DNA of 64,000 nt from Rhodocyclaceae bacterium (GCA_020248265.1 JADCHX010000004.1:103473-167472), one strand, 5' to 3'. Shown: positions 15,312-62,891, counted from the stretch's first letter. Numbers and translations: made by a program. The notes: a model not told the origin generated them from the sequence alone.

Positions 15312-15372
15312 CGCTCTCATGGGCGGCGGCGTGTAACCTGCTACCCTCGCGGGCTTCGAGGATGGCGCGCAC

Positions 15373-46107: not shown

Positions 46108-46269
46108 TCCCGGCTGTGCGACTACTGCGATCTGATCGCGGGCAACTCCACCGGCGTCATCATTGCCGCCGCGCTTTCGGTCGGCATGAGCGTCGACGAG
46201 ATTCGACGAGATTCGACCTCGGGGACCGGGGTCGCGAGGGGAAATTCATCGCCTGTGAGTGTGTGGTGA
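46108..46269 (+). pseudogene. patatin-like phospholipase remnant
   Basis: A start-less frame reads LCDYCDLIAGNSTGVIIAAALSVGMSVDEI, the patatin nucleophile block with GxSxG as GNSTG. No upstream oxyanion motif or downstream Asp motif. The 10-bp unit GAGATTCGAC is tandemly duplicated at 46198-46217. Confidence 0.5.
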
Positions 46270-46342
46270 ATCCGCAGTTGACCGCTCGGAGCACGGGGAA
46301 GTACAGTGATGTCGTGCGAGAAGCTGTTCGAATAGGATTCAG

Positions 46343-47305: not shown

Positions 47306-47330
47306 CAGTCCGCATGCAAGGAAGCGAGCC

Positions 47331-48290
47331 ATGTCCCAGATCGTGAACATTTCCCAGCTCCGGAACTTCTATGCGTCGGGGGAGACGCCGGCCGACGCCG
47401 CCCGGGTCGACCTGCGGATGGTGTTCGGCCGCTCGGTCGCACTCGCGGTGGGTGTCTGTGAGCCTGATTACCACCCCGCGCCGCAGATACACGCCTCCGA
47501 GGAGATCACCTACGTCGCATGCGGCGAGCTGTGGGTGTACGTGGACGGCACCGGATACCTTCTGCGCGAAGGCGACGCGATCCGCGTGCCGCGCATGAAG
47601 ATGCACTGGATGTGGAACCGCTCGGGCGCGAACTGCACGTTCTACCAGTCGAATTGCCCGCCCCTCGCCGGCGATCCGGCAGTGCGGCAATCGCGGTCGG
47701 CGTTGTTCGACGAAGGCGAGACGATACCCACCGACTATCCGCGTGTGGTGTGGCTCGCGCGCAAGTACGCGGACGAAGCCGAGCGCAGGAACGAAGCGCC
47801 GGCTGAAGGGCCGCTGGTCGCGCGCGCCGCCGAGCTCAAGACCAGCGTGCATTCGGGTGCCATCGGCGCGGCTGCCTCCGGCAAACTCACGTCGAAGTGT
47901 GTCCACGGGCTGGAGCACAACATGACGATCGCGACGCGCAAGGGTGGCTATCACTCGGTGCCGCACATTCACGACGCCGAGCAGATCCACTATATCGTCA
48001 GGGGCGACATCAAGATCTACACGCCGGAGAACGGTTTCGATTGCCGCGAGGGCGATTTCAACATCGTGCCGCGCAACATGCCGCACTGGGCACACGTCAC
48101 TTCAGAAGACGAGAACATCCTGTTGCAGGTGCACACGCCGGTACTCGGTTCGGCGGCGAATCGCAAGGCGCTCGTCAGCCCCGATGAGTACGTGGGGCCC
48201 ATACCGACCGTCTACAACATGACGCCTTGGGCCGCCGAGGAGATCATGCAGGTCGAGGAGAAGTTCGCCGGCGCGATGCGGCATGCGTGA
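47331..48290 (+). CDS. bicupin protein
   Basis: 319 aa with two cupin-like halves (HASEEITYVACGELWVYVDG and HIHDAEQIHYIVRGDIKIY). Confidence 0.7.
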   Translation: MSQIVNISQLRNFYASGETPADAARVDLRMVFGRSVALAVGVCEPDYHPAPQIHASEEITYVACGELWVYVDGTGYLLREGDAIRVPRMKMHWMWNRSGANCTFYQSNCPPLAGDPAVRQSRSALFDEGETIPTDYPRVVWLARKYADEAERRNEAPAEGPLVARAAELKTSVHSGAIGAAASGKLTSKCVHGLEHNMTIATRKGGYHSVPHIHDAEQIHYIVRGDIKIYTPENGFDCREGDFNIVPRNMPHWAHVTSEDENILLQVHTPVLGSAANRKALVSPDEYVGPIPTVYNMTPWAAEEIMQVEEKFAGAMRHA

Positions 48291-48314
48291 TCCGGCCGCG
48301 CGGCCGCGTTTCTG

Positions 48315-48715
48315 GTGCGATGCACGCCACCGCCTGCGCACGGCAAGCGCGCGCTGCCGGCCGATGAGGTGCTGCCCGAAGTGCTCTGCGTGGTGTACTG
48401 CACGATCTCCGGCCACACGGGTGCGGCCACGCTGATCCAGCGCTTTGTCTCGGCATTGAATCTGAACGTGCACTTTCACATGATCTTCGCCGATGGCGTG
48501 TACGTCACCGAGGTGTCAGGGAGGGTGTCGGCAGGTCGAGCGCACACCGTGCACTGGCGCTGAAGGTGCAGGGCGGGGCGTGCTGCACTCGACGATCAGG
48601 GCACGGGTGATGACGGGCGACGCAGGCGCCATCGAGTGCTGTCGGACCGGGTTGGCCAGCCGATCCAGGGCCGATCGTAGCCTGCAGCGCATCGGCGCGA
48701 GGCGAGCCGGCTTCA
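48315..48715 (+). mobile_element. IS91/ISCR-family transposase gene fragment A1 (dead)
   Basis: Track ORF 48315..48563 contains TGAATLIQRFVSALNLNVHFHMIFADGVYV, the family core (HFH is probably the HUH motif). It is followed by frameshifts and stops. It lacks both the N- and C-terminal regions of the protein. Confidence 0.6.
48591..48702 (+). repeat. 112-nt direct repeat, copy A (partner 60756..60867)
   Basis: Manual ungapped alignment gives 100/112 identical positions. 10 of the 12 differences are transitions. Confidence 0.8.
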
Positions 48716-48783
48716 GGCGGCAGCGCGGTGGGGCTGGCAGGGGGGGGTGAAAGTACTATTCGCTGGTCGGCTACTGGTCTGCA

Positions 48784-49185
48784 TCACTGCAACTCCAGGG
48801 TGTTGTAGTCCTGGCCATAACCGCGGAGGGCAAAGTAGAACCGGGACTTGGAGAAGCGATAGAGGTTTCCGCAATCCCACGGATCGCTATCGACGTTGAT
48901 GCAAAGCCGATCGCCGTCCAACTGCCATCGTCCTGTCTTCCTTACCGGCAGCATTCGCATCGAATAGCGCACCCTTCCGTCCGGACTGAATTCATACCGC
49001 ATCCCGCCGAAGATCGCGTTGTTGAACGTGGCCGGCCTCGACAGCAAGGCCGAGACCTCACCCGCGCTCATCAGCTGGGCTCCGGCAGGAACCGGTTCGG
49101 TCTGCTCGATGGTGGCGCAAGCAGATAACGCCAGCGAGAGCAAGAGCGACAGCATAGCCCCGCGCACACGTCGAACATTCGTCAT
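48784..49185 (-). CDS. small lipoprotein of unknown function (lower-GC)
   Basis: ATG 49185 with AGGAG upstream. MTNVRRVRGAMLSLLLSLALSAC lipobox. 133 aa. Local G+C is 33/60 at 48781-48840. Confidence 0.55.
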   Translation of the reverse strand: MTNVRRVRGAMLSLLLSLALSACATIEQTEPVPAGAQLMSAGEVSALLSRPATFNNAIFGGMRYEFSPDGRVRYSMRMLPVRKTGRWQLDGDRLCINVDSDPWDCGNLYRFSKSRFYFALRGYGQDYNTLELQ

Positions 49186-49532
49186 CGGACATCTCCTGGG
49201 CGGTTCGTCGGCACTCCGCCGCGACCGCTCGGCATAAGACATGCTGGCCCAGGTCGACCAGCGCCGAGTGGCAAGCGACAGGTTCCACGATCGATGCTAG
49301 GCGATGCTAAGCATTCGGGCAAGCAGAAGAAGGCTGGAGTCGCTCTTTATCCCGTCATCCTGCTGTCGACGTCGGACAACCTCGGCCTGGACAGACCATG
49401 CCCAGGCCGGGCGCGACTTCGCGCGCGGCCAGTCGAGGCGCGGGCGCAGCACGGCCAGCACGACGTTGATCAGACACAGCCTCGGGTAGTACACGGCCAT
49501 CGCCGCCTGGCCGCTCACCAGCAAGAGCGCGA

Positions 49533-49694
49533 GACAGTTGGTTGAGCGGGGAGCCGGTACAGGCCGGGTCGCTGGATGAGCTGATCGGCCATTGCATCAT
49601 CTGGCGGATCGCGGTGGCGCGCGCCATGCACCGGGCTAACGACGAAAAGTTGCTGCTGGTGCAGACGGTGGGCTGGCCGAAACCGCCCCGCTGA
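49533..49694 (+). mobile_element. IS91/ISCR-family transposase gene fragment A2 (dead)
   Basis: A start-less frame reads DSWLSGEPVQAGSLDELIGHCIIWRIAVARAMHRANDEKLLLVQTVGWPKPPR, then a stop. Compare the family pattern NSYL..LLGHSITYRIAVGP..GRKVFTLQT. Confidence 0.5.
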
Positions 49695-49762
49695 GCCGCG
49701 GGCGACCCCGGCCGCGGGGGTGGGCCTTGACGAGACCGCCATTCGTGGTAACACTGTTGCTC

Positions 49763-50425
49763 ATGGATGCCGTCCAACCCGCGTTCGACTACCAGCATGC
49801 CCGCGCCGAGGGCGACGCCGTTGCCCGCCGCGGCCTGCTGGAGCTGGCCGCGCGGCTGCTGGCCGAGGAAGGGCCGCAGGCGCTGACGCTGCGCACGCTG
49901 GCGCAGCGGGCCAACTGCTCCACCAAGGTTGTCTACACGCTGTTCGGCGGCAAGAACGGCCTGAGCGAGGGCCTCAAGGTGGAGGGTTTCGCTCAGCTGC
50001 GCTTCGCCGTCGAGCGCGAGCGGCGCCGCCACCGCGATCCCGTGCGCGCGCTGCTGCCCGTGATGCTGACCTACCGCAGCTTCGCTCTGGGCCAGCGCGC
50101 GCTGTTCCGCGTGATGTTCGGCAACGCACTGCCCGAGCACGTGCCCACCGACTACTCGCGGGCGCAGGCGCGGCTGGCCCTGGGCGCCGTGGAGTCGGCG
50201 GTGGCCGAGGCGCGCGGCGCACTCGGCCACGACCCGAGCGACGCCCACGAGGCTGCCGTGCGGCTCTGGGCCGCGGCGCATGGCCCGGTCACGCTCGAAC
50301 TCGAAGGTATCCCCCCCTTCAGCAACGACGGCGGCCGCCTGGCCCGCCTGGCCGTGACTGACGTGCTGGTCGGTCTGCGACTGATGCATCCCCCCTTGTC
50401 CACCCACCCGGAGACGCGCCCGTGA
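49763..50425 (+). CDS. TetR/AcrR-family transcriptional regulator
   Basis: ATG 49763 (track start is TTG 49727). HTH LTLRTLAQRANCSTKVVYTLFGGKNGL. Confidence 0.8.
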   Translation: MDAVQPAFDYQHARAEGDAVARRGLLELAARLLAEEGPQALTLRTLAQRANCSTKVVYTLFGGKNGLSEGLKVEGFAQLRFAVERERRRHRDPVRALLPVMLTYRSFALGQRALFRVMFGNALPEHVPTDYSRAQARLALGAVESAVAEARGALGHDPSDAHEAAVRLWAAAHGPVTLELEGIPPFSNDGGRLARLAVTDVLVGLRLMHPPLSTHPETRP

Positions 50426-50776
50426 ACCTTCGAGACCACACCGCCGCCGCAGCGTCGGCCGCCGCCTTCCGACTCGGCCTGTCCCTCGCGCCGACGCGGG
50501 CCGCCGCCACTCCGGCGCAGGCGCGCGCCTCCCATCTCCGGCGCGCAGGCCACCTGCGTGTTCGATGAGCTCCCGTCCGGCGCCTGTGCGGTGGCCGTGG
50601 TGCACGACGAGAACGGCAACGGCCGTCTCGACAAGAACTCCCTGGGCATCCCCACCGAGGGCTACGGCGTCCCGAACAACCGCACCTTCGCGGCGTCGAG
50701 TCCGAAACGGGACGAGTCGCGCTTCACCGTCGCGGCGCGCGAGTCGGCGGTGCTGCGCGTCAACCTGCGCTACTGA
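50422..50776 (+). pseudogene. DUF2141-like gene, N-terminally disrupted
   Basis: GTG 50558 onward gives the conserved C-terminal half, FDELPSGACAVAVVHDENGNGRLDKNSLGIPTEGYGVPNN. A signal-like stretch starting at GTG 50422 is in a different frame and stops at 50569. The usual N-terminal beta-strands are missing. Confidence 0.45.
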
Positions 50777-50888
50777 CGCGGGCCCGCGCCGCGGCCGTCG
50801 TCAGGGCTTGCACGAGCCCTTTTGTCGGCGCTAATGGAAACGGTGTTTCTATTCTGCAACGACGTTTTCGTTATTTGGGGAACCGACC

Positions 50889-51704
50889 ATGAGCCTTCTC
50901 ACCACGACCCTTATCACCGGCGGCAGCGGCGGCATCGGCCTGGAGATGGCGCGGCTGCTGGCCGCGCGCGGCCAGCGCCTGGTGCTGGCCAGCCGCGACG
51001 CCGACCGGCTGCAGGCCGCCGCCGATGAACTGCACCGCGCGCACGACGCCGAGGTGCACGTACACGCCATCGACCTGGCCGAGCCCGGCGCAGCGCAGCA
51101 CCTGTTCGAACACACGCAGCACCAGGGCCTGCGTATCGACGCGCTGGTGAACAACGCCGGCTTCGGCGTGGTTGACGAGCATGTGGCCATCGCCGTGGCG
51201 CAACTGCAGCGCATGCTGCAGCTGGACGTCGTGGCCGTGGCGGAGCTGTGCCACCGCTACGGCGGCGAGATGAAGCGGCGCAGGGCCGGCCGCATCCTCA
51301 ACGTTGCCTCGACGGCGGGGTTCCAGCCCACGCCGTACTTCGCTGCCTATGGTGCCGCCAAGGCCTTCGTGCTCAACTTCTCCGAGGCGCTGGCCAAGGA
51401 GCTGGAGGACCACGGCGTGAGCGTCGGCTGCCTGGCCCCCGGGCCCACCGACACGGCGTTCTTCGACGGCATCGACCCGCGTCGCATCGCCGGCGGCCAC
51501 CACCTCGGCAAGGCCGGCCGCGCCGACCCGCGCGACGTGGCCGCCGTCGGCGTGGATCTGCTGCTCGGGGGCGGACTCACCCGCGTGGTGGGGCTGACGA
51601 ACCGAGTGATGGTGCTGGGCAACCGCTTCGTGCCGCGGGCGATGGTGGCGGCGGTGTCCAAGCGACTGCTGCAGCCTTTGGATCTGCGCGCCGCGGCGCA
51701 CTGA
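50889..51704 (+). CDS. short-chain dehydrogenase/reductase (SDR)
   Basis: 271 aa. TGGSGGIGLEMARLLA (TGxxxGxG) and YFAAYGAAKAF (YxxxK). Confidence 0.85.
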   Translation: MSLLTTTLITGGSGGIGLEMARLLAARGQRLVLASRDADRLQAAADELHRAHDAEVHVHAIDLAEPGAAQHLFEHTQHQGLRIDALVNNAGFGVVDEHVAIAVAQLQRMLQLDVVAVAELCHRYGGEMKRRRAGRILNVASTAGFQPTPYFAAYGAAKAFVLNFSEALAKELEDHGVSVGCLAPGPTDTAFFDGIDPRRIAGGHHLGKAGRADPRDVAAVGVDLLLGGGLTRVVGLTNRVMVLGNRFVPRAMVAAVSKRLLQPLDLRAAAH

Positions 51705-51752
51705 ACGCAATCCCACCCCCCGAAGCCCACCCCACCAGAACCGGAGGATCCC

Positions 51753-51965
51753 TTGCAGCTTCCGTACAAGCTCCTGCGCAACCTGCATCTGGCGGCGTCG
51801 CCATTCATCGGCGCCTTCGTGTACTCCGGCGCCCTGCGCGCCAACGACACCTTCCTGGCCATCGTGCAGTGGGGCGTGTTCCCGCTGGTGGCCGCCGCTG
51901 GCCTGGCGATGTGGCTGGGCCCGCGCCTGGCTCGCCGCAGCCGCGCCGGCGGGGCGCGTGATTGA
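51753..51965 (+). CDS. small hydrophobic protein (hypothetical)
   Basis: 70 aa, non-ATG start, two hydrophobic segments. Its stop overlaps the TTG start of the next ORF (TTGA). Confidence 0.3.
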   Translation: MQLPYKLLRNLHLAASPFIGAFVYSGALRANDTFLAIVQWGVFPLVAAAGLAMWLGPRLARRSRAGGARD

Positions 51966-53095
51966 CCCGCCGCCCGCGCTACGCGGCGGTGGCCGCGACG
52001 GTTCTCGCCCGGCATACCGCCGCGCTGCTGCGGACGCTGGCGCTGGCGGTTGCGCTGTCCGGCTGCGCGTCGGTCAACCCGTACTACGACCCCGCGCGGC
52101 AGCACCATCGTCCCGACGGTTTCAACAACCTGTTTGTCGACAATCGACGCGCCGACGCGCCCAGCTTCTGGCGCTGGCAATGGGAGCGGCTGCTCGGCGA
52201 GCAGGCACCGGACGAGCTGTACCGCGTGCGCAGCGTGCCGCTGGACGCGCAGCTGTTGCACGGCAATCGTGGTGACGTCACCGTCACCTGGATCGGTCAC
52301 TCCACCGTGCTGTGGCAGATAGGTGGCCTCAACATCCTCACCGACCCGCACTTCGGCGACCGCGCCTCGCCGGTGACCTTCGCTGGGCCGCGGCGCATGG
52401 TGCCCCTGCCCACCACGCTGTCTGCGCTGCCGCGTATCGACGTGGTGCTGCTCAGCCACAACCACTACGACCACCTGGACCGTGGCACCGTGCACGCGCT
52501 GGCGGCGCAGCCCGGCGGGCCACCGCTGTTCGTGGTGCCGCTGGGCGTGGACCTGTGGATGCGCGACGAGGGTATCCCGAACGTGCGCCGCATGGACTGG
52601 TGGGACCGCATCGCGCTGCCCGGGCCGGCCGGCGAGGTGGTGGTGCACTTCGTGCCGGTGCAGCACTGGTCGAGCCGCACGCCCTGGGACCGCCACGCCA
52701 CGCTGTGGGGCGGCTACGTCGTCGAGGGCGCGGCGGGCCAGCTGCCCTACCGGATGCTCTTCGTTGGCGACACCGGCTACTCGCCCGACTTCAGGGTGCT
52801 GGGCGAGCGCTTCGGGGGCTTCGACTTCTCGCTGATCCCGGTGGGTTGCTACGAGCCGCGCTGGTTCCACGCCAGCATGCACGTCAACGAAGACGAGGCC
52901 GTTCGCATCCACCTCGACGTGCGCAGCCGACTGTCGATGGGCATCCACTGGGGCGCCTTCCGGCTGTGTGACGAGCCCGTCCACGCGCCGCTGGACGAGT
53001 TGCCCCGGGCCCGGGCGCGCCACGGCGTGCCCGACGAGGCCTTTGTGCTGTTCAACCCGGGCCAGACCCGCGTGCTCGCCGCGGCCGCACGGTGA
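51962..53095 (+). CDS. MBL-fold metallo-hydrolase lipoprotein (NAPE-PLD-like subfamily)
   Basis: 377 aa. Lipobox LALAVALSGC. WIGHSTVLWQ, VVLLSHNHYDHLD and GIHWGAF. Confidence 0.75.
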   Translation: MTRRPRYAAVAATVLARHTAALLRTLALAVALSGCASVNPYYDPARQHHRPDGFNNLFVDNRRADAPSFWRWQWERLLGEQAPDELYRVRSVPLDAQLLHGNRGDVTVTWIGHSTVLWQIGGLNILTDPHFGDRASPVTFAGPRRMVPLPTTLSALPRIDVVLLSHNHYDHLDRGTVHALAAQPGGPPLFVVPLGVDLWMRDEGIPNVRRMDWWDRIALPGPAGEVVVHFVPVQHWSSRTPWDRHATLWGGYVVEGAAGQLPYRMLFVGDTGYSPDFRVLGERFGGFDFSLIPVGCYEPRWFHASMHVNEDEAVRIHLDVRSRLSMGIHWGAFRLCDEPVHAPLDELPRARARHGVPDEAFVLFNPGQTRVLAAAAR

Positions 53096-53424
53096 GCGCC
53101 GCGGTGACGGAGGTGGTCCTCGCGCTGGCGGCGGCACCAAAGTTGCCTGGCTTTGTTGGGGTCAGCCTGACATCGTCTGGTGGGCGGTGCGTCTATTGGT
53201 GGGGCTGGGGTAGGCCAGGTTGCGTTCAGTGCAAGGCGCGCCTCTTGCACCCGGTAGCGCAGCTGACTGACGGCCAAGCCCTCACGGCCACGCAGGTAGC
53301 TGCTCGGTCGTGCCTCAGTCATCGTGCCGCGGTGGGCCTTGGGGGACGTCCAGTGCGTTCACAGACGAGTTTTCAGATAACCTCATCAGCTAGACTTTGT
53401 CGTAACTGCCTTGCCGGACCCCTC

Positions 53425-54099
53425 ATGAGAACATCAGGAATTCTCGTTATCGCCGCGGCTCTGACTCTCGCCGCGACCCTCTCCGGTTGCGCCGGCAGCC
53501 ATAAAGACAAGGGTCAGCCCATTCCGCAGTCTGGTTTCCTGCCCGACTACAACCTCCTGAGCGAAGTCGGTGGAACGCCGAAAGACGTCAAGCTGTGGCG
53601 TTACCGCGATGCGTCGGTCAACCCGGCGACCTATACCTCGATCATCATCGATCCGATCGATATCAAGCATGTTGCCTACACCAAGGAAATCACGCCCGAA
53701 ATCGTCGCTCAGACCAAGGCAACTTTGCAGGCTGCGATCCACGAAGCGGTTGGCAGTCGGGGCTCGATGAAAATCGTGAGTACCCCTGGGCCTGGCGTCG
53801 CCCGCATCTCGGTTGCCATCACCGGTGCCGAGATCGACCCTGCAGGACTGAAGCTCTACGATTTCACGCCGATTGGACTGGTGGTCAATGCTGCATCGCA
53901 TGCCGGCGGCGTCAACTCGAAGATCCCGGCAATGGTGGTCGAGAGCAAGATCGTGGACAGCATGTCGCGTGCCTTTCTGGGCGGCGGCGTGGTGACCGTG
54001 CAGGGCGATTCTTTCCGAACCGGAAGCGGATCGATCGAATCCTTCCAGAACATGGCAAGGAAGGCGGTTCAGGCAGCGGTGATGACCCCCGCTCAATAA
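53425..54099 (+). CDS. DUF3313-like lipoprotein
   Basis: ATG 53425 inside track ORF 53092..54099. MRTSGILVIAAALTLAATLSGC lipobox, then SGFLPDYNLL. 224 aa. Lower-GC start region (34/60 at 53401-53460). Confidence 0.65.
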   Translation: MRTSGILVIAAALTLAATLSGCAGSHKDKGQPIPQSGFLPDYNLLSEVGGTPKDVKLWRYRDASVNPATYTSIIIDPIDIKHVAYTKEITPEIVAQTKATLQAAIHEAVGSRGSMKIVSTPGPGVARISVAITGAEIDPAGLKLYDFTPIGLVVNAASHAGGVNSKIPAMVVESKIVDSMSRAFLGGGVVTVQGDSFRTGSGSIESFQNMARKAVQAAVMTPAQ

Positions 54100-54261
54100 A
54101 ACCAACGCGGCAAAACCCTGAAGAGCGTCAGCAATCGCCCCATCACGGGGTGTTGGCACCGCGCGGTGGCCTGCCTGCGCTGATTCGCTTCGATTCGCTG
54201 CAGCACGCGCATGCGTGCACGTAAGCCAGCGCTGTCGGCCACCATCAGGGAGGAGGACGTC

Positions 54262-56337
54262 ATGCAAGGTCATTCGTCAGGCGCTCTTGCGCGCCTGTTG
54301 AGCTTCGCCGCGCTGGCGTTGCTGGTCGCCGGCTGCGCGATCACCCCCGCGTCCCTGGAGGAAAGCAGCCGGCCGATCGCCGGCTATCTCGACTACTCGT
54401 GGGACAAGAACTCGGTGCTGTTCAATACCCGCGAGCGCAGCCGGCGGACGGTGTTCATGGACACCTTCTATCCCTTCGATCCCTCGCTGCGCTACAACAA
54501 CGCCGAGGCGTTGGTACGCCACGAACTCGACCATCGGCCATTCATGCAGGACGGCGTGCTGATGGTGGCCTTGTCGGACCTGCGCAGGATCTACGCGCCG
54601 TTCATGAGCTACTCGGTCGACGCCTCGACTCAGCGCTTCACGGTGCAGCACCACTTCTTCCGCAAGCGGGTGGCGGCGGGCTCGGGTTCGCGCGCGCCGA
54701 CGATCGAATACACCAGGATCGCCTGGCAGGGGGCCTATGCGCTCGGCAGCACGGCGGCAACCTCCTCGTCGGCCACCCACGCCACGGTCACCGACCGCAA
54801 CCAGATCGACAAGGCCGCGGTGGCCAATGCCGGCGCGGCCGCTGCGGCGACGCTGGCCGCGGCACCGGTACAGCGGAACGGGCGCATCTATGTGCCCGTG
54901 GCGAGCTTCATGCGCACCCTCGGCAAGACCATCACCGACGATACCGCCGCCAGTGGCTATCTGGCGGTGAGCCATGTCGACCCGCAGGACACGGCAGATG
55001 ACATCTTCAACCCGGCATACGCCAACCGCGGCCTGCCCAATACGCCGATCACCCCGGCGCGGGTGAAGACCATGAACGGCCTGCTCGACGGCAGCATCGA
55101 CCGCGGCAACCTGTGGTTCTCGATGTATCTGGGCGACATCCGGGTGTTCAGCGGCAAGGCCGATGCGAACGGGCAGGATATCCACGTGATGTCGGCAGTG
55201 GACCGCATCGTCCCCTATCGCCTGTATGTGCCGGCGCGCTACGACTCGCGGCAGCCTTCGAAGTTCACCTTCAACCTGCACGGCGCCACCGGCAACGAGA
55301 ACGCCCCCTTCGAACGGCCGAACGACCATCTGAAGAACCATCCTTCGGCGCTCGGGCTGAACAGCCTCGAAGCCTACGCCGACCACTACAGCTACATCAT
55401 CCTGTCACCCAACGGCTGGACGCGCGGGCCGGTGTGGGGCAGTGGACCCGGCGAGCAGATCATGCTGGCCGCGCTGGAGCAGGTCCGGCAGCGGTACAGC
55501 ATCGACCCCCAGCGCATGTTCATCTTCGGAAACTCCGCCGGCGCTGCGGGTGCGATGAGCTTCGTGCGGCGTCACGGCCACCTGTTCAAGGCGATGGCGC
55601 CGACCGCGCCGGGCGGCAGCAAGCCCTACGCCGCGGACCTCAACGACCGTATCCTCGACATACCGACCGTCCTTTCGTGCTTCACGGCCGACGTGACCGT
55701 CTTCTATGTGGGCAACGCCAGGAACTCCTGCCAGACCTGGTACGCGGAGAACCTGCGCGGCCGGATGCGCAACCTCACCACGATCACGGTCGAGAACGGC
55801 CACCACTCCTTCGGCCCGGCCTCTCTCTACCAGATCACCTTCGACCATTTCGAGCGCGCGCTCGATCGGACGCCGCCGAGGAACGTCGCCGCGGTGCGAC
55901 TGGGCGCGGGCCAGGCTACCGCCACGGTGGCGGAATCGGGCGGCGCGACGTCCCGCGTCAAGCTGGCCACGGCGCCGGTGCGCGAAGGGGGTGCGCTGAT
56001 GGTGGCGCTGGACGATCTTGCCCGCATCTACGGCGAAAGGGATTTCCGCGTCTACGATGTACATGCCTACAACCAGAAGCCCTCGGACATGGTGTCGGTC
56101 AAGACGGTGCTGTTCAACCAGGTTTCCGTGAACATCAAGCCCGGCGAGCGCTTCCTGCGTGTGGGTGGCACCATCCATCCCGGCGATACCGTCGACGGAA
56201 AGACCCGGGTGGCGGCGGAGGACCCCCGCGTGGACAAGCGCAGCCTGTCGGTACCGGCACGCAACAGCAGTGGCAGGATCATGGTGCCGGTGGTCGAATT
56301 CATGCAGCTGTTCGGCAAGACCGTGACCGTGGAATGA
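54262..56337 (+). CDS. large lipoprotein: esterase (alpha/beta hydrolase) core flanked by repeated copper-amine-oxidase-N-terminal-like (stalk) modules
   Basis: ATG 54262 with GGGAGGAGGA upstream. Lipobox ALLVAGC. Core has YRLYVPARYD..FNLHGATG and the nucleophile elbow FGNSAGAAG. Four related beta-hairpin motifs (see findings). Confidence 0.7.
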   Translation: MQGHSSGALARLLSFAALALLVAGCAITPASLEESSRPIAGYLDYSWDKNSVLFNTRERSRRTVFMDTFYPFDPSLRYNNAEALVRHELDHRPFMQDGVLMVALSDLRRIYAPFMSYSVDASTQRFTVQHHFFRKRVAAGSGSRAPTIEYTRIAWQGAYALGSTAATSSSATHATVTDRNQIDKAAVANAGAAAAATLAAAPVQRNGRIYVPVASFMRTLGKTITDDTAASGYLAVSHVDPQDTADDIFNPAYANRGLPNTPITPARVKTMNGLLDGSIDRGNLWFSMYLGDIRVFSGKADANGQDIHVMSAVDRIVPYRLYVPARYDSRQPSKFTFNLHGATGNENAPFERPNDHLKNHPSALGLNSLEAYADHYSYIILSPNGWTRGPVWGSGPGEQIMLAALEQVRQRYSIDPQRMFIFGNSAGAAGAMSFVRRHGHLFKAMAPTAPGGSKPYAADLNDRILDIPTVLSCFTADVTVFYVGNARNSCQTWYAENLRGRMRNLTTITVENGHHSFGPASLYQITFDHFERALDRTPPRNVAAVRLGAGQATATVAESGGATSRVKLATAPVREGGALMVALDDLARIYGERDFRVYDVHAYNQKPSDMVSVKTVLFNQVSVNIKPGERFLRVGGTIHPGDTVDGKTRVAAEDPRVDKRSLSVPARNSSGRIMVPVVEFMQLFGKTVTVE

Positions 56338-56371
56338 TGGCCCGGAACCACCCATTACCCAGGAGGACACC

Positions 56372-57361
56372 ATGACCACCCATGCATTTGCCGCGCCCGT
56401 CGTCGACGCCCTTTCCGTACGCGTGCTGGTGGATTCGCGCTACGAGCGCTTCCTGCCGCGGATGGACCATCCGCACGTGAAGATCGAGCACGTCGGCCGC
56501 ATCATCGGCCGGCCGGAGAGCACGTTTGCCTGCGAGTGGGGCCTGTCGCTGCATCTGACCTCGGAGAAGGACGGTGCGAAGGCGCAGTACGTGCTCGACT
56601 TCGGCTACACGCCGGAGATCATCAACCGCAACTTCGAACTGCTCGGCATCGAGCCCGGCAAGATCAACGGCCTGATCCTCAGCCACGGCCACCTCGACCA
56701 TTTCGGCGGCCTGCAGGGCTTCGTCAAGCAGCATCGCGGGCAGATGCGCGATGACCTCGCGCTGTATGTCGGTGGCGAGACCATCTTCCGCACCAAGTGG
56801 GTGAAGGAAGGCGGCGAGACCCTGCCGTGGTGCACCCTCGACCGCGCGGCGCTGGAGGCGCAGAAGGTGCTGCCGGTGTGCTGCCCGCAGCCGCAGGCAC
56901 TGGATGGTGCCTTCACCTCGGGCTACATCGAGCGCACCTCCTTCGAGACCGTGACCGGCGGCTCGCTGGTGGTGGACGACCATTTCACGCCGACCGAGCG
57001 CGCGGGCAACCTGGTCAAGGACACCCATCCCGACGAACACGCCACCTGCTACATCGTCAAGGGCAAGGGCCTTGTAGTGATTTCATCCTGCGGCCACACC
57101 GGCATCATCAACACCGTGAGGAGCGCGATGAAGGCCGCCAACACCGACAAGGTACACGCCGTGATGGGCGGCTTCCATCTGGGCCCTGCGCCGGTGGATT
57201 ACCTGCAGCACACGCTGAAGGAACTGCAGGCGATCAATCCCGACGTGATCGTGCCGATGCATTGCACCGGCGAGCGCTTCATCGACATGCTGCGCCAGCA
57301 GATGCCGGATCGCGTGGTGTACTCGAACGTGGGCAGCCGCTATACCTTCGGCCTGCAGTAA
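56372..57361 (+). CDS. MBL-fold metallo-hydrolase (COG1237-like)
   Basis: 329 aa. LILSHGHLDHFGG, SSCGHTGIIN and GGFHL. Confidence 0.75.
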   Translation: MTTHAFAAPVVDALSVRVLVDSRYERFLPRMDHPHVKIEHVGRIIGRPESTFACEWGLSLHLTSEKDGAKAQYVLDFGYTPEIINRNFELLGIEPGKINGLILSHGHLDHFGGLQGFVKQHRGQMRDDLALYVGGETIFRTKWVKEGGETLPWCTLDRAALEAQKVLPVCCPQPQALDGAFTSGYIERTSFETVTGGSLVVDDHFTPTERAGNLVKDTHPDEHATCYIVKGKGLVVISSCGHTGIINTVRSAMKAANTDKVHAVMGGFHLGPAPVDYLQHTLKELQAINPDVIVPMHCTGERFIDMLRQQMPDRVVYSNVGSRYTFGLQ

Positions 57362-57381
57362 GCCACGGCCCGGATATCGTT

Positions 57382-57545
57382 TCAGCTGCCGGTGCAGACC
57401 GCCCTGTCGCCGGCGTCGGTGATCACGACCACCTTCACCGCGGGATCGGTGTCGAGCTTCGGAAGCAGTTGCATCGGGTCATCAGCGCGTCGCCTTGTCA
57501 TCGCCCGGCGTATCGCCGGGGTGCGAGCATGAATCCGATCGTCGA
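57382..57545 (-). pseudogene. enoyl-CoA hydratase (crotonase) N-terminal remnant
   Basis: The tail of track ORF 57382..57822 reads RPAIRRAMTRRRADDPMQLLPKLDTDPAVKVVVITDAGDRAVCTGS, then a stop. This matches the crotonase pattern D..V+VVVLTGAG.+AFCAG and ends where the oxyanion helix should begin. Confidence 0.4.
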
Positions 57546-58256
57546 TCAGCGTGCAGCAGGTTCCAGCCCTGTCGCACGGATGTCGTCGGCCGCCTCTGCC
57601 GAGGCGAGGAACTCGATCGCGCGTGCCGCCGCTTCGGGATGCACGGCGCTCACGCCGACTGCCGCGCTGAAGGTCGTGAACAGCTGGACTTCGTCCGGCA
57701 GCGGGGTGATGTGCGCGATGCCCTCGATCGGCAGCAGTTCGCTCACCTGCTGGAAACCGATTTCGATCTCGCCATTGGCGATGAATGTGCCGACGCGCTG
57801 GCCGTTGCCGACGAACTGACACTTCGGCATCACTTCGTCATGGATGCCCAGCCGCCGGAACAACTCGGTGGTGAGGTAGCGCCCGCTCACGCTCGCGGAA
57901 TAACCGATCGAGGTGGCGCGCAACAGGGTGTCGCGCAGGGCGTCGACCGTGCCGATGTCGGGTGCGGGCGCTCCGGCCCGTACCGCGACCCCGATCACCG
58001 ACTGTGCCAGCAGCACACGGCCTTCTGCCCGTGCGAGGCCGTCGCGGATGAACCCCTGCATGACGCTGTCGTCGCAGATCACGAGGTCGGCGACTTCGCC
58101 GCGTTTCAGCCGGTTGGGGATCGAAATGTCCCCGGTGCCGATAGACGTGGTGACGGTGACGACCTTCAGTCCAGTGATGCGTTCGACGGCGGGCAGCAGC
58201 CGGAGGTGGGCGGCGGTGAATGCGCCTGAAGTCATCACCCGCAATTCTTTGCTCAT
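57546..58256 (-). CDS. ModA-like (molybdate/tungstate-type) SBP-fold protein without signal peptide
   Basis: Start ATG 58256 or GTG 58268. LRVMTSGAFTAAH and DLVICDDSVM. No leader peptide. Confidence 0.55.
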   Translation of the reverse strand: MSKELRVMTSGAFTAAHLRLLPAVERITGLKVVTVTTSIGTGDISIPNRLKRGEVADLVICDDSVMQGFIRDGLARAEGRVLLAQSVIGVAVRAGAPAPDIGTVDALRDTLLRATSIGYSASVSGRYLTTELFRRLGIHDEVMPKCQFVGNGQRVGTFIANGEIEIGFQQVSELLPIEGIAHITPLPDEVQLFTTFSAAVGVSAVHPEAAARAIEFLASAEAADDIRATGLEPAAR

Positions 58257-58437
58257 GGATTCGCCCACACGCTATATCGGGCCGGAAGGATAGCACCGTG
58301 ACATTGCGGCGATGGCAGCGCAGCGCGGCGTACTTCCGCCCGGCAGCGCTACGCCCTCCGGCTCAGGAGCGTTGTGTTCCGGGGGCACAGGTTCCGGGGT
58401 ATTCTTTCCTGGTTCGCCGTGCAGAGGAGGCCAGTGC

Positions 58438-59457
58438 GTGACCCAGAATGACAAGACCCGTCGCCCGGTTCCGGCAGTTCCCCTGGCTGGACGGGCCGCC
58501 CTGGCTGCCCTGGCTGCTACCGCCCTGCTCACCGCCGCGGGTGCGACCCGGGCCGCGGATGCACCCTATCCGACACGGCCGATCCGTATCATCGTGCCGT
58601 TCGCCCCCGGCGGCGGCAACGACATTGCTGCGCGCTTCCTTGCGCAGATGTTCCAGGATTCGTTCGGCCAGCAGGGGCTGGTCGACAACCGTCCCGGCGC
58701 CGGCAGCACGCTGGGCACCGCGATCGCCGCCCAGGCCCAGCCGGACGGCCACACCATCCTGATCACGCATAACGCGATAGCCATCAACGAAAGCCTGTAT
58801 GCGAAGCTGCCATACAGCGTGCGCGACTTCGCGCAGGTCGCGTTCATCGGCGAGACCACCAACGTGCTGGTGGTGCATCCATCGATGAACGTGAAGAGCG
58901 TGAAGGAACTGCTGGTGCTGCTGCGCTCCAAGAAAGGCGTGTTCAACTACGCGAGCACTGGCGCTGGCGGCACCTCGCACCTGGCGGCCGAATACTTCAA
59001 GCAGATGACCGGCACCGACATGGTCCACGTGCCGTACAAGGGCACCGGCCCGGCACTGGCCGACCTGGTCGGTGGAGCGACCCAGTTCATGATCTCGGGC
59101 GCACCGGGCACGCTCGGCTTCATCAAGGGCAACCGCCTCGTGCCGCTGGCCACCACAGGCGCGAAGCGCTGGGCCCAGCTGCCCGACCTGCCGACGCTGT
59201 CCGAAGCCGGCGTCCCCGGCTACCAGTTCGACCTCTGGTACGGCGCGCACGCCCCGGCGAAGACGCCGCGCTACATCGTCAACCGGCTGAACGCCGAGAT
59301 CAACAAGTCGCTGCAGGTGCCGGCGCTGCGCGCTCGGCTCGTCGATGCAGGCCTCGATCCGGTGGCCTTGTCGCCGGAAGAGTTCACGAAGTTCGTGCGC
59401 ATCGAGACCGAGCGGGCGCGCAAGATCATCCAGGCGTCGGGCGCCAGGCCGGAGTAG
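58438..59457 (+). CDS. Bug/TctC-family periplasmic solute receptor
   Basis: In-frame GTG 58438 with GAGGAGG 7 nt upstream. PYPTRPIRIIVPFAPGGGND and VPYKGTGPALADLVGGAT. Confidence 0.85.
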   Translation: MTQNDKTRRPVPAVPLAGRAALAALAATALLTAAGATRAADAPYPTRPIRIIVPFAPGGGNDIAARFLAQMFQDSFGQQGLVDNRPGAGSTLGTAIAAQAQPDGHTILITHNAIAINESLYAKLPYSVRDFAQVAFIGETTNVLVVHPSMNVKSVKELLVLLRSKKGVFNYASTGAGGTSHLAAEYFKQMTGTDMVHVPYKGTGPALADLVGGATQFMISGAPGTLGFIKGNRLVPLATTGAKRWAQLPDLPTLSEAGVPGYQFDLWYGAHAPAKTPRYIVNRLNAEINKSLQVPALRARLVDAGLDPVALSPEEFTKFVRIETERARKIIQASGARPE

Positions 59458-59576
59458 AGATCTGGCGGGGGAGGGTGCGCCGGTCCCGGCCACCGCGCGG
59501 TTGGTCGGTCAAGGCCGGAAAGGCCTCCTCGACGATCCGTAATGCGACGGTCCGGGACCCTGCAGGCGCTACTACT

Positions 59577-60686
59577 TCACCAGTTCGACCTCGCTGGGTG
59601 ACCTGAAATGGCTGTGCGCCGCGCCGATGCCGCGCTGACCTGGGCCTCGCTGCCTTCGCTGCGCGCCCGCAGTTGGCCGCAGCCACCGTCCACGTCCTGC
59701 CCGGCCGAATGGCGCAGCTTGGTGAGGATGCCGCGGCGCTTCAGCAGCCGCGCCATTTCGGCCGCACGTTCCCAGCTGGGCCGCTGCCAGGGCAGGCCGG
59801 GCACGCTGTTGTAGGGAATCAGGTTCAGCACCGCGTACTGGCCGTGCAGCAGTTGCACGATGCCGTCAATCTCGTCGTCGCCGTCGTTCACGCCCTGCAT
59901 CAACGTCCACTGGTACTGGATGGGGTAGCCAGTGGCCCGCGCGTAGGCGGTACCTGCGGCCACCAATTCGCCCGGCGTGATGCGGGCAGCACGGGGCAGC
60001 AGCTGTTCGCGCAGGCCCGGCTTGGTGGTGTGCAGGCTCAGCGCCAGCGCCGGGCGCACCTGGCCTTGGTGTAGCGCCATCAGGCGTTCGAAGGCACGCG
60101 GGTCGCCCACGGTGCTGAAAACCAGGTTCTTGTGGCCGATGTTGCCTAGCGAGCCCATCAGTTCAATGGCCTCGAGCACGGCATCCAGGTTGTGCGCCGG
60201 CTCGCCCATGCCCATGAAGACCACTTTCTTCACTGGCCGCAGCGTGCGGGCCAGGGCCAGCTGCGCCACGATTTCGGCGCTGCCCAGCTGGCGCAGCAGG
60301 CCACCCTGCCCCGTCATGCAGAAACCGCAGCCCACGGCACAGCCCACCTGGGTGCTGACGCACAGGCCGGGAATGCGCTCGGGCGTCAGCAGCACGCTTT
60401 CCACGGTCTTGCCGTCGGCCAGCTTCACCAGCAGGCGTTCGCTGCCGTCCTCAGCCGGGTGGCGCTGTTGCAGTATGGCCAGGCCCTGCAGCATGGCTTG
60501 CCAGGCGGGCAACTCGTGCCGCACGCGCTGGGGCAGGAAGTGCTCGGGCTGGCTGCGGCGCGGGCCCTGCGGCAAGGCCTGAACCCACAGGCGCAACAGG
60601 TGCGCCACATGGCGCGGGCCCGCGCCATGGCTGTGCAGATGGGCAATGAGTTCCTTGATCTGGTTCATGGCAAAGGATTGGACCAT
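59577..60686 (-). CDS. RlmN/Cfr-family radical-SAM RNA methyltransferase (orphan paralogue)
   Basis: 369 aa (alternative ATG 60668). CAVGCGFCMTGQ (CxxxCxxC) and MGMGEPAHN. The mechanistic Cys pair is conserved in LCVSTQVGC and DVDGGCGQL. Confidence 0.8.
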   Translation of the reverse strand: MVQSFAMNQIKELIAHLHSHGAGPRHVAHLLRLWVQALPQGPRRSQPEHFLPQRVRHELPAWQAMLQGLAILQQRHPAEDGSERLLVKLADGKTVESVLLTPERIPGLCVSTQVGCAVGCGFCMTGQGGLLRQLGSAEIVAQLALARTLRPVKKVVFMGMGEPAHNLDAVLEAIELMGSLGNIGHKNLVFSTVGDPRAFERLMALHQGQVRPALALSLHTTKPGLREQLLPRAARITPGELVAAGTAYARATGYPIQYQWTLMQGVNDGDDEIDGIVQLLHGQYAVLNLIPYNSVPGLPWQRPSWERAAEMARLLKRRGILTKLRHSAGQDVDGGCGQLRARSEGSEAQVSAASARRTAISGHPARSNW

Positions 60687-60755
60687 ACGCGGCGGTACCC
60701 ATGACCTGCAGCACGTCGAACAGGCCGTATCAAGTGCACCACAGACGCGGCGGCA

Positions 60756-60867
60756 ACGATCGGGGTGCGGTTGATGACGGGCGACGCAGGCGTCATCGAG
60801 CGCTGTCGGGCCGGGTTGGCCAGCCGATACAGGGCCGATCGTGGCTTGCGGCGTATCGGCGCGAGGC
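60756..60867 (+). repeat. 112-nt direct repeat, copy B = IS91-family transposase fragment B
   Basis: Partner of 48591..48702 (100/112 identity). Reads ALSGRVGQPIQGRSWLAAYRRE in the frame equivalent to copy A. Confidence 0.8.
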
Positions 60868-61102
60868 TGGAGACGGTGGATGACAAGATTGTCACTACTT
60901 GATGGCAGCCGCGTGCATTTGCCGGCTGGACTTCTGCGCCGTGTTCGGGTTTGTCACGGAGTTTTCATACTGGGCGGATACCGTCCCCTCGCCTGCGCAC
61001 ACGGGAACGGCATCCGTCGACCCACCTGCCAGCCATGTCCGATCCGGGCGCGGCCGGCGAAGTGATGCAGGGCCCTTCCGAATCCTCGCAGGAGCAGAAA
61101 AC

Positions 61103-61585
61103 ATGAAACGTCGTCTCTGGCTGGTCTGCGCGGCCGCCGTGCTGGCCTCCGGTTGTGCCTCGATGGACAGCGCGCCCGTCGACATCGCGGCCACCGCGGC
61201 CGCTTCGCCGGACTTCACGATCCTGTCGAAGGCTATCCAGGTCGCCGGCCTGACCGACACGCTGAAAGGGCCGGGGCCGTTCACGGTGTTCGCCCCGAAC
61301 GACGCGGCGTTCCGCGCGCTGCCCAAGGGCACGCTCGACAAGCTCCTGGCCGACCCGGGGACGCTGCGCCAGGTGCTCACGTACCACGTCGTGCCGGGCA
61401 AGGTGATGGCCGTCGACGTCAAGACGAGCTCGGTCAAGTCGGCGCAGGGCACCGCGCTCGCGCTGTCGCGCGCGGGTGCGTTCGTGACGGTCGAAGATGC
61501 CGCTGTGATCAAGGGCGACATCCAGGCCACGAACGGCGTGATCCACGTGATCGACAGCGTCCTGCTGCCGCCGCTGAAGAAGTAG
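61103..61585 (+). CDS. fasciclin (FAS1) domain lipoprotein
   Basis: ATG 61103. Lipobox AVLASGC. FTVFAPNDAAFRALP and ATNGVIHVIDSVLLP. Confidence 0.8.
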   Translation: MKRRLWLVCAAAVLASGCASMDSAPVDIAATAAASPDFTILSKAIQVAGLTDTLKGPGPFTVFAPNDAAFRALPKGTLDKLLADPGTLRQVLTYHVVPGKVMAVDVKTSSVKSAQGTALALSRAGAFVTVEDAAVIKGDIQATNGVIHVIDSVLLPPLKK

Positions 61586-61591
61586 GCGAGT

Positions 61592-61611
61592 GCCGGTCCG
61601 CCCGGACCGGC
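61592..61611 (+). terminator. GC-rich hairpin after the fasciclin gene (possible intrinsic terminator)
   Basis: GCCGGTCC-GCCC-GGACCGGC, a perfect 8-bp stem 6 nt after the stop. No T-run follows. Confidence 0.35.
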
Positions 61612-61760
61612 ATCCTCTGCGCCTGAAGCTGCGTCTGCATCTGCGCGTGACGCCATGCCTGATGCAGCTGCAGGCGCCGCCATCACCGGCGCTGCCTGAC
61701 GCTGCCCCACCCTGCTCGCACGCCGCAACGGGTCGTCCCCCGGCGCTGTTGCTGCTGCAC

Positions 61761-61916
61761 TCAGGCGGTCGCGCGAGCGGCTGCGGCGATCTCCTCGGCC
61801 CATTCGCGTGAAGTCGACGCTCGCTCGGAGTCGACCGTCACCCGAACGACCGGGTCGGTGCCGGACGGCCGCCCCGCATGGTCCGAACGCACTGATGGGC
61901 AGGTCTGATGCGGCAT
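61761..61916 (-). pseudogene. C-terminal remnant of a phosphoglucosamine/phosphohexose mutase (GlmM-like)
   Basis: 51 codons: MPHQTCPSVRSDHAGRPSGTDPVVRVTVDSERASTSREWAEEIAAAARATA. Compare the E. coli GlmM end as I recall it, [21 protein letters not shown]..IADAV. Confidence 0.5.
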
Positions 61917-61934
61917 GGTCGGTAGAAACCCCCA

Positions 61935-62891
61935 CTATTCGCCAAACGCGATCCCTTCAGGCAGCGTGAACAGCGCATCGATGTCGGGCATCGCATCGAT
62001 GAACCCCTGCGCCTGCAGGTAGCCAGCGAGCTTGCCGACGACCATCCGGTTCACCGGCGTCAGGCCGTAGGGCAGCGGGTCGCCGCCGAAGATATCGAAC
62101 ACGCGCGCCCAGGTGTTCTTCGCCCACGGCATCAGCGACGAACCGATCTTCCGTGCATAGGCCTCGCGCTTGGCATCCACGTACGACTGCGCGACTGCGG
62201 CCAGCAGGCCCGGGTGCTGCTGATGTACGTCGGTACGTACGACCACGCAGTGGTTGATCGGGTAGATGCCTGTGCGCTCGTAGTAAGCGAGTTCGGTCGC
62301 CTCTGCATCGCGCAGCACGGTGCGTAACTGGCGCTGGTGCAGCGGCTTCTGGAAATCCTTCACCACGAAGCCGAGGCTGGCGTCGGCCTGTCCCGCGAGC
62401 AGCAGGTCTTCGGTCGCGCCTTCCATGAAGTCGATGCGTGCGCCGGCCGGTGCGGCGTGGCGCTGATTGCGTCCGGTGACCCAGGTGATCGATCGCCAGT
62501 CGACGCCGTACTCGTCCTCGAGCAGGCCGCGCACCCAGGTCGCCGCGGTCATCGTGTAGTCGTCGACCGCGATGCGCCGCCCGCCCAGCTGTGCCAGGGA
62601 TACGATGTCGCTGTCGCGCCGAGTGATCAGCGTACCGTGGCGGAACGCGCGGTTCGGGAACACCGGGATCGCGGTCACCCAGTCCTCGCCGTTCGCGCGC
62701 AGCGTGAGGTAGTTGGCCAGCGAGAACTCGCACACCTCGTAGGGGCGGCTGTGCATCATCGCCTTGAAGATGTCGTTCGGCGACGACGGCTCGAAGGTGA
62801 AGCGGAAGCCCAGCCGCTCGCCGGGCAAGCCGATCAGGTGCTCGTAGTCGCCGCCGCGGATGCGGAACTCGGGTATCCGGTCAGGCTGCAT
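61935..62891 (-). CDS. SBP-fold-like protein resembling 4,5-dihydroxyphthalate decarboxylase family, no signal peptide
   Basis: 318 aa. CEFSLANYL and GIYPINHCVVVR. Assignment is tentative. Confidence 0.45.
   Translation of the reverse strand: MQPDRIPEFRIRGGDYEHLIGLPGERLGFRFTFEPSSPNDIFKAMMHSRPYEVCEFSLANYLTLRANGEDWVTAIPVFPNRAFRHGTLITRRDSDIVSLAQLGGRRIAVDDYTMTAATWVRGLLEDEYGVDWRSITWVTGRNQRHAAPAGARIDFMEGATEDLLLAGQADASLGFVVKDFQKPLHQRQLRTVLRDAEATELAYYERTGIYPINHCVVVRTDVHQQHPGLLAAVAQSYVDAKREAYARKIGSSLMPWAKNTWARVFDIFGGDPLPYGLTPVNRMVVGKLAGYLQAQGFIDAMPDIDALFTLPEGIAFGE

Follow-up and report, generated by a model that had tools for sequence, protein, structure and literature searches.

Relics of an ISCR-type oriIS-side region form a direct repeat in a mosaic segment of a Rhodocyclaceae bacterium genome

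The direct repeat and the relics that carry it

The DNA under study is a 64,000-nt stretch from a Rhodocyclaceae bacterium (GCA_020248265.1 JADCHX010000004.1:103473-167472), called the window below; all positions are counted from its first base. It contains two directly oriented copies (A and B) of a 112-nt repeat, each lying in the decayed remnant (relic A or relic B) of an insertion sequence of the IS91/ISCR family. A first reading, made from the sequence alone, had taken the two copies for transposase fragments that bracket a single mobile segment of about 12 kb. According to the comparisons reported here, the repeats belong to the non-coding region between the transposase stop codon and the oriIS end of an ISCR-type element, and the 12 kb is backbone DNA broken by separate insertions or deletions (indels).

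Positions 48592-48703 and 60756-60867 were aligned without gaps at 100 of 112 positions (89%), in direct orientation and 12,164 bp apart, start to start. Within-window blastn found the pair at E 4e-38 and no third copy in the 64 kb. The alignment reproduced the count of the sequence-only reading, whose coordinates were exact for copy B and off by one base for copy A (48591-48702 in place of 48592-48703). An imperfect hairpin, GATGACG-N11-CGCCATC, is contained in copy A. The features needed first are as follows.

48295..48520, plus strand: coding part of relic A, a 5'-truncated ISCR-type transposase pseudogene (about residues 100-211 of about 500 aa)
48519..48764, plus strand: oriIS-side non-coding region of relic A (region X), from the last transposase codons to the element terminus
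48592..48703, plus strand: copy A of the direct repeat, from the middle of the oriIS-side region
48784..49242, minus strand: small lipoprotein gene of low G+C (0.60) without a family match, flanked by the oriIS terminus and the second transposase fragment
49527..49670, plus strand: second transposase fragment (residues ~243-290, motif LIGHxIxxRIA)
60748..60894, plus strand: relic B, 147 bp that the 94%-identical contig L022 lacks
60756..60867, plus strand: direct repeat copy B, within relic B

The transposase fragments

The assignment of the fragments to IS91/ISCR was borne out by profile searches. The coding part of relic A retains the HUH motif NLNVHFHMIFADGVY, and the open reading frame (ORF) at 48315-48563 matched Pfam Y2_Tnp (positions 1-31 of 183; E 3.8e-5; score 24.2 bits, cut-off 20.9) as well as NCBIfam ISCR_clade_Ia (positions 175-211 of 509; E 1.6e-11). 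The latter score is far under the whole-protein cut-off of the model because only a fragment of the transposase is left. When the IS91 signal of relic A was used in tblastn, thousands of ISCR-bearing plasmids were matched.

A hidden Markov model (HMM) of this IS91 lineage, derived from 116 proteins, recovered both true transposase fragments, at E 5e-23 for the HUH region and E 0.017 for 49527-49670. With full-length ISVsa3 (ISCR2) as the tblastn query, residues 140-215 were located at 48366-48548 and residues 246-287 at 49533-49670; with closer relatives as queries, 49527-49670 was detected at E 1e-6 (P0157), 1e-5 (P0141), and 3e-4 (P0144). The piece that had been read at 49533-49694 as a further block of the same family is thus IS91-derived, and it was mapped to 49527-49670. 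It sits about 760 nt past the terminus of relic A, beyond the opposite-strand, low-G+C lipoprotein gene. Because deletions in a single copy cannot put a middle fragment after the 3' end, this piece derives either from a nested insertion or from a second copy, which would have stood in tandem or on the far side of the cargo.

Searches of the whole window with ISVsa3 and twelve closer relatives returned no match to the N-terminal zinc-finger (zinc-binding) part or to the C-terminal catalytic-tyrosine region, in keeping with the earlier description of dead fragments devoid of both. The fragments belong to an IS91/ISCR-family element, an unnamed member of a known family.

Identification of the repeat as oriIS-side sequence

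Metagenomes were scanned with the longest 20-mer shared by the two repeats. Nine matches were obtained; seven were due to chance and two, in the loci L027 and L032, were real. Window 48519-48764 aligned to positions 815-1058 of L027 at 87.8% identity, and 48519-48662 aligned to L032 at 86.9%; L027 and L032 match the core of relic B (60756-60870) at 90.4% and 93%, respectively. In L027, the sequence of region X directly follows the C-terminus of an ISCR transposase (ISVsa3 residues 387-489, E 2e-17; ISCR_clade_Ia 440-507 of 509). In L032, where the gene context is another, the last dozen transposase codons are followed by a stop codon and then by region X. A third locus, L042, is a related pseudogene in which the true post-HUH middle region is preserved; it has 87-90% DNA identity to the window up to 48520 and no similarity beyond. 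Given the order of parts in L027 and L032 and the divergence of L042 at 48520, window 48519-48764 is non-coding and lies downstream of the transposase. The earlier claim that the repeats are transposase fragments therefore does not hold, since their sequence is located 3' of the transposase stop codon.

Elements of this family are laid out as terIS-transposase-oriIS, and ISCR1 has a 232-bp oriIS-containing region (PMC6218425, PMC13393415). The homology between the window and L027 stops at ...GGGGCGTTTGAAAGTACTATCCGCT in L027 and ...GGGGGGTGAAAGTACTATTCGCT in the window (48742-48764), with a terminal motif, GGGGGGTG-AAAGTA-CTATTC, at about 48742-48761. From the end of the transposase model to this terminus there are 233 nt, and the element ends are found 232 nt (ISCR1), 233 nt (ISCR2), and 228 nt (a Psychrobacter element) after the stop codon. 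The terminal sequences of these three (GGTGGTTTATACTTCCTATACCC, GGGCGTTTATTCTTCCTATACG, and GGCGTTTATTCTTCCTATAC, respectively) have GGCGTTT-N7-CTAT(A/C)C in common; the window/L027 homology ends at GGCGTTT/GGGGGTG-N7-CTAT(C/T)C. Because both the position of the terminus and its motif match those of ISCR1, ISCR2, and the Psychrobacter element, region X is read as the oriIS-side region of an ISCR-type element (about 230 nt, from the transposase stop codon to the oriIS terminus), and the 112-nt repeats are parts of it. Relic A thus bears an oriIS-like end; relic B has no terminus.

The search for element ends that had been proposed was successful only in part, as no terIS was identified: relic A is 5'-truncated exactly at the block boundary 48295, and no 5' part of the element was found. 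An active element would need the tyrosine region, the zinc finger, and terIS; with none of them present, this one is a dead relic that presumably can no longer transpose. IS91-family elements have a two-ended terIS/oriIS organisation and create no target duplication (PMC13181058). No such duplication was found at the boundaries of relic B or of the block that begins with relic A (block 1, below). Past the terminus, the window continues with GCTG and L027 with GCTC.

Anatomy of the relics and relationships among the copies

Relic A (48295-48764) consists of the HUH region, up to about residue 211, fused to the last transposase codons by one large deletion; its region X is complete up to the oriIS-like terminus. 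Its left edge coincides with a breakpoint (48294/48295) relative to the two relatives L035 and L036. The alignment with L042 shows two gaps in relic A, of 66 nt and 39 nt. Conspecific contigs of at least 99% identity elsewhere differ in whether they have the 39-nt deletion, and the transposase pseudogene is still losing pieces within the species. The conspecific JGI contigs L009-L015 have 39 bp more (13 aa, LLASAGVRRAAGH) at window 48409-48415, and Logan contigs share the shorter state of the window at this site.

The core of relic B (60756-60870, about 115 bases) is homologous to region X; no transposase sequence and no recognisable terminus accompany it. L022 was aligned to 61009-60895 and to 60747-59607 with 3 nt between, such that 147 bp is missing from that contig. 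Relic B is present in the conspecific strain L043. At the right edge of the 147-bp indel (60881-60894), between the divergent RlmN-like and fasciclin genes, there is a perfect palindrome, TGACAAGATTGTCA, which might bind a regulator and is absent from L022.

Four copies of the oriIS-side sequence are known (A, B, L027, and L032). The lowest similarity is that between copies A and B (0.87-0.89; the other pairs, 0.89-0.93), and each of the two has 6-8 private changes relative to the other copies. A duplication in place explains these similarities no better than separate descent from a common master sequence does. An old segmental duplication was considered as well, given that two TctC genes are 12,140 bp apart, near the spacing of the repeats; both belong to the backbone in L035 and they are only ~65% identical, no more than the many other TctC paralogues in the window, and the idea was rejected.

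The discrete presence or absence of relic B relative to L022 raises the question of whether the oriIS-side module (~250 nt) spreads or persists alone, as a non-autonomous mini-element or an early-stopped rolling-circle product, with the 147 bp of relic B being a recent insertion between the RlmN-like and fasciclin genes. Such behaviour would also agree with the retention of the post-stop stretch in relic A, L027, and L032, each of which has a different upstream truncation point; the terminus is visible only in relic A and L027, as the L032 contig ends inside region X. However, random deletion explains the truncations equally well. Missing from relic B are the last ~60 nt, where the oriIS motif would lie; terminal repeats and a target duplication are absent there as well. 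No module beyond the four known copies was found in the other 300 kb of fetched loci, and the module has no RNA family match and no unusual fold. An independently spreading module is accordingly regarded as unlikely.

Comparison of the segment with close relatives

L035 is a metagenome-assembled genome from NCBI (GCA_026399745.1) with 92-97% identity to the window across collinear blocks near the relics; L036 is 92-96% identical and ends within the MBL329 gene. The gene order in L035 is TctC - bicupin (fused by a deletion) - DUF3313 - MBL329 - SBP_bac_11 - TctC - PhnD-like - hydrolase, and that in L036 is TctC - bicupin - DUF3313 - MBL329. The window has the gene order of L035 plus extra blocks, with breakpoints relative to L035/L036 at 48294/53386, 54147/56344, and 59491/61940. 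The resulting partition is listed below.

48295..53385 (5,091 bp), unstranded: block 1, absent from L035 and L036
53386..54147, plus strand: DUF3313 lipoprotein gene, backbone, collinear with L035 and L036
54148..56343, plus strand: 708-aa lipoprotein gene (PHA-depolymerase-like esterase), ancestral, absent in L035 and L036
56344..59491, unstranded: backbone with MBL329 (329-aa MBL-fold), SBP_bac_11 (minus strand), and TctC, 95-97% identical to and collinear with L035 except at 57409-57490
57409..57490: 82-bp extra piece, part of a crotonase remnant, absent in L035
59492..61939 (2,448 bp), unstranded: block 3, with an RlmN-like gene (minus strand), relic B, a fasciclin lipoprotein gene, and a GlmM C-terminal remnant

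Block 1 begins exactly at relic A and continues with the small lipoprotein gene, the second transposase fragment, a TetR gene, a truncated DUF2141 gene, an SDR gene, a 70-aa ORF, and a gene for a 377-aa MBL-fold lipoprotein. In L035 and L036, the bicupin gene adjoins DUF3313, with 8-9 nt (TTTTCCCC) where block 1 stands. In place of block 3, L035 has 89 nt of unrelated sequence. The 708-aa gene was lost by the relatives, because both retain fragments of it (in L035, 41 nt matching 56133-56173; in L036, about 80 nt, 54328-54407).

L043 (GCA_046337595.1), a genome bin, is 99.3% identical to the window. It matches from 64000 down to 57543, copy B included, and then diverges. From its position 10553 on, just past SBP_bac_11, it has DUF1993, DUF3297, and PIN genes. 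The divergence at 57543 reflects either a strain-level rearrangement or an assembly chimera; unless the L043 assembly is chimeric, linkage across the segment is not constant within the species.

These alignments bear directly on the proposal of a fossil ISCR-type composite, in which the relics would flank a single 12-kb captured unit that moved, or could move, as a whole. The relics are indeed directly oriented IS91-family pieces, and the segment holds several gene fragments along with lipoprotein genes. ISCR models predict cargo flanked by direct copies, and ISCR1 has variable genes on its oriIS side (PMC6218425). A captured unit should, however, appear as a foreign block with an empty site in relatives. 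Instead, four of the genes between the repeats (DUF3313, MBL329, SBP_bac_11, and TctC) form backbone that is collinear with L035 and accounts for about 4 kb of the supposed segment; L036 confirms DUF3313 and the start of MBL329. Neither of these relatives has the relics, and relics A and B are in separate blocks (48295-53385 and 59492-61939), each with its own breakpoints. Furthermore, the segment includes an ancestral gene (that for the 708-aa lipoprotein), the RlmN/fasciclin junction of L022 is free of relic B, linkage is broken at 57543 in L043, and the two copies are not each other's closest relatives. A composite is thus very improbable. Because the relics sit in separate indel blocks with conserved backbone between them, the 12 kb is backbone DNA plus separate indels and not a composite element. 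The second option of the sequence-only reading, a recombination hotspot, fits better, and what is seen is ordinary genome decay in a rearrangement-prone mosaic region.

Coding, RNA, and promoter readings of the repeat

Several searches addressed the view that the 112-nt repeats are transposase coding sequence, i.e. the middle region after the HUH motif. One frame of the repeat includes a stretch, LSDRVGQPIQGRS, similar to ISERVGRQLQRRG in certain IS91 proteins, and the tblastn alignment of P0226 continues through this stretch. The best Smith-Waterman z-score of the repeat against IS91 middle regions was 3.6 among 60 tests, and no score of the repeat frames was significant. The candidate frame has a stop codon in copy A. 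The lineage HMM matched no frame of the repeat at E below 10, tblastn of its translations against plasmids gave nothing at E up to 10, and none of the six frames had a Pfam match. An early impression that one frame reads like IGRLLEKRGLIERD was not borne out by six-frame protein searches. At the DNA level, the repeat had no match on plasmids, and its 20-mer gave only chance matches in representative genomes. Since the true middle region kept by L042 is 90% identical up to 48520 and then dissimilar, and since the repeat sequence comes after the transposase C-terminus in L027 and L032 (in L032 also after the stop codon), the coding interpretation is the least credible of those weighed and can be set aside.

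A structured RNA or regulatory repeat was also rejected, as there was no Rfam match in the window and the fold z-scores were -0.9 to +0.8 relative to shuffled sequences. An outward promoter in relic B was dropped after a scan gave no promoter-like site. The Rfam, fold, and promoter scans thus gave no indication of present promoter or RNA activity in the relics, and the 112-nt repeats have no demonstrated function.

Insertion, loss, and a proposed history

Taken as a whole, the favoured explanation is that A and B are relics of an ISCR-type oriIS-side region which were inserted independently and then decayed, with no 12-kb unit; its probability is put at about 0.8. Several points weigh against it. 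At the oriIS motif, only 13-15 of about 20 bases match. No intact master copy was found, and the native stop codon and exact terminus were deduced from relics and other ISCRs. Relic B is devoid of both ends. The cargo of block 1 lies on the oriIS side of relic A, which makes oriIS internal, and this arrangement is not a simple product of one-ended transposition.

Also on that side of the balance, blocks 1 and 3 may reflect either insertion here or deletion in the relatives. A more distant relative, in which a 73%-identical bicupin is followed by an amidase, is an uninformative outgroup for block 1. Private substitutions in A and B amount to 5-7%, compared to a per-lineage four-fold-site divergence from L035 of ~6% (0.113 in total between the window and L035). 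Dating by four-fold-site divergence was abandoned, as it cannot separate insertion from loss. For block 1, insertion is the more natural reading because an insertion sequence stands at its start, G+C is elevated in its TetR-to-MBL part (0.71, with G+C at third codon positions of 0.89-0.92; backbone, 0.65-0.68), and its tetranucleotide distance is near the 95th percentile of the window. A comparison of the block 1 cargo with the plasmid collection searched revealed no close counterpart, only distant MBL-fold matches on Ralstonia megaplasmids.

The locus contains the dead remains of two or more ISCR-type insertions, each within a separate indel block of the mosaic, and a plausible history can be outlined. 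ISCR-type copies may have landed independently, at least twice, in a rearrangement-prone, TctC-rich region. They would have carried or attracted extra DNA: at relic A, block 1 on the oriIS side; around relic B, the relocated block with the RlmN-like and fasciclin genes. Later deletions would then have destroyed the copies. The position of the small lipoprotein gene between the oriIS end and the second fragment is the arrangement to be expected if a circular intermediate recombined with a resident copy.

Other genes in and around the segment

All five lipobox proteins noted earlier (48784, 51962, 53425, 54262, and 61103) could be read in the translations, and the patchy G+C across the segment was evident in the composition profile. 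The description of the region as a mosaic with broken genes is likewise sound, as several gene fragments were detected. The DUF2141 fragment covers positions 48-108 of the 112-position profile. The crotonase fragment is N-terminal (~57385-57543, minus strand) and matched ECH_1 at E 9e-4, under the curated cut-off. The GlmM remnant is C-terminal (61764-61934, minus strand; PGM_PMM_IV 38-67 of 68) and matched at E 1.3e-4, also under the curated cut-off; this phosphoglucosamine mutase-type piece is located at the right edge of block 3 and adjoins the L035 breakpoint. The patatin remnant that had been mentioned was not found in the pieces scanned.

The gene that had been called RlmN/Cfr-like is an intact RlmN-like radical-SAM methyltransferase gene (59577-60686, minus strand; NCBIfam PRK14464, 547 bits) and not Cfr. 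In relatives (L020, L021, and L023-L025; 85-87% amino-acid identity), it has urease accessory genes on one side and an S4-domain gene on the other, with gyrB-dnaN-dnaA following a short way on in L021. The homology of these relatives to the window stops at the ends of the gene, which has clearly moved, with breakpoints at both of its ends. Its last ~10 codons differ from those of all relatives.

The 708-aa lipoprotein (54211-56337) is composed of a copper-amine-oxidase-N-like domain and a PHA-depolymerase-like esterase core. The 82-bp piece at 57409-57490, part of a minus-strand enoyl-CoA hydratase N-terminal remnant, is flanked by the near-identical 9-mers CGCCCTGTC and CGCCTTGTC; it looks like the outcome of a deletion between short repeats in the relative or of a small patch insertion in the window. 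In L035 (9819-10757, compared to window 46263-48294), a 1,078-bp deletion that corresponds to window 46986-48063 fuses TctC to the 3' end of bicupin, which results in a 250-aa hybrid ORF (P0327). At least ten paralogues of TctC (Bug-family solute-binding proteins), about 65-70% identical to one another, are encoded across the 64 kb, and they supply many short homologies in this indel-rich region. The most atypical tetranucleotide composition in the window was found at 12000-15600 (L1 distance up to 0.335 in 2.4-kb windows; mean, 0.195).

Implications and comparison with known systems

For annotation, the repeats should be labelled as relics of an ISCR-type oriIS region, and the 12 kb should not be described as a mobile unit. 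ISCR-type elements are mostly known from resistance plasmids; here they have left recognisable oriIS-end fossils in environmental Burkholderiales-like chromosomes, where the fossils mark breakpoints in a fast-rearranging, TctC-rich region. The conserved oriIS-side sequence could serve as a probe for an intact element. The known workings of the IS91/ISCR family are unchanged by this locus.

The relic resembles the ISCR group most closely. Its best NCBIfam model is ISCR_clade_Ia, its HUH-region fragment is ~50% identical to ISVsa3 (ISCR2), and the C-terminus in L027 is 47-51% identical to those of ISCR2 and ISCR1. Because the protein identity is only ~50%, it represents another, unnamed ISCR member. 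As in ISCR1 and ISCR2, a non-coding region of ~230 nt follows the gene and ends in the shared terminal pattern described above (GGCGTTT-N7-CTAT(A/C)C in those elements). Unlike them, the element has no intact gene here, the 7-nt spacer of its terminal motif differs, and its host is an uncultured freshwater Burkholderiales-like bacterium in which it resides in chromosomal-looking DNA without resistance genes.

Compared to IS91, IS801, and IS1294, the members studied by experiment, no terIS, target tetranucleotide, or catalytic tyrosine region was identified here; the Y2_Tnp domain and the two-ended terIS/oriIS logic are common to all. A parallel in arrangement is provided by the truncated ISCR (ΔISCR) copies of resistance regions, which adjoin captured genes and likewise keep the oriIS end, lose the 5' parts, and have foreign-looking genes on the oriIS side (in the window, those of block 1). 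The cargo differs from theirs in that it comprises TetR, SDR, and MBL-fold hydrolase genes and lipoprotein genes, with no close plasmid counterpart. In ISCR1, variable genes adjoin the oriIS side (PMC6218425), just as the block 1 genes adjoin that of relic A, and the block 1 cargo may have been delivered by an ISCR-type element.

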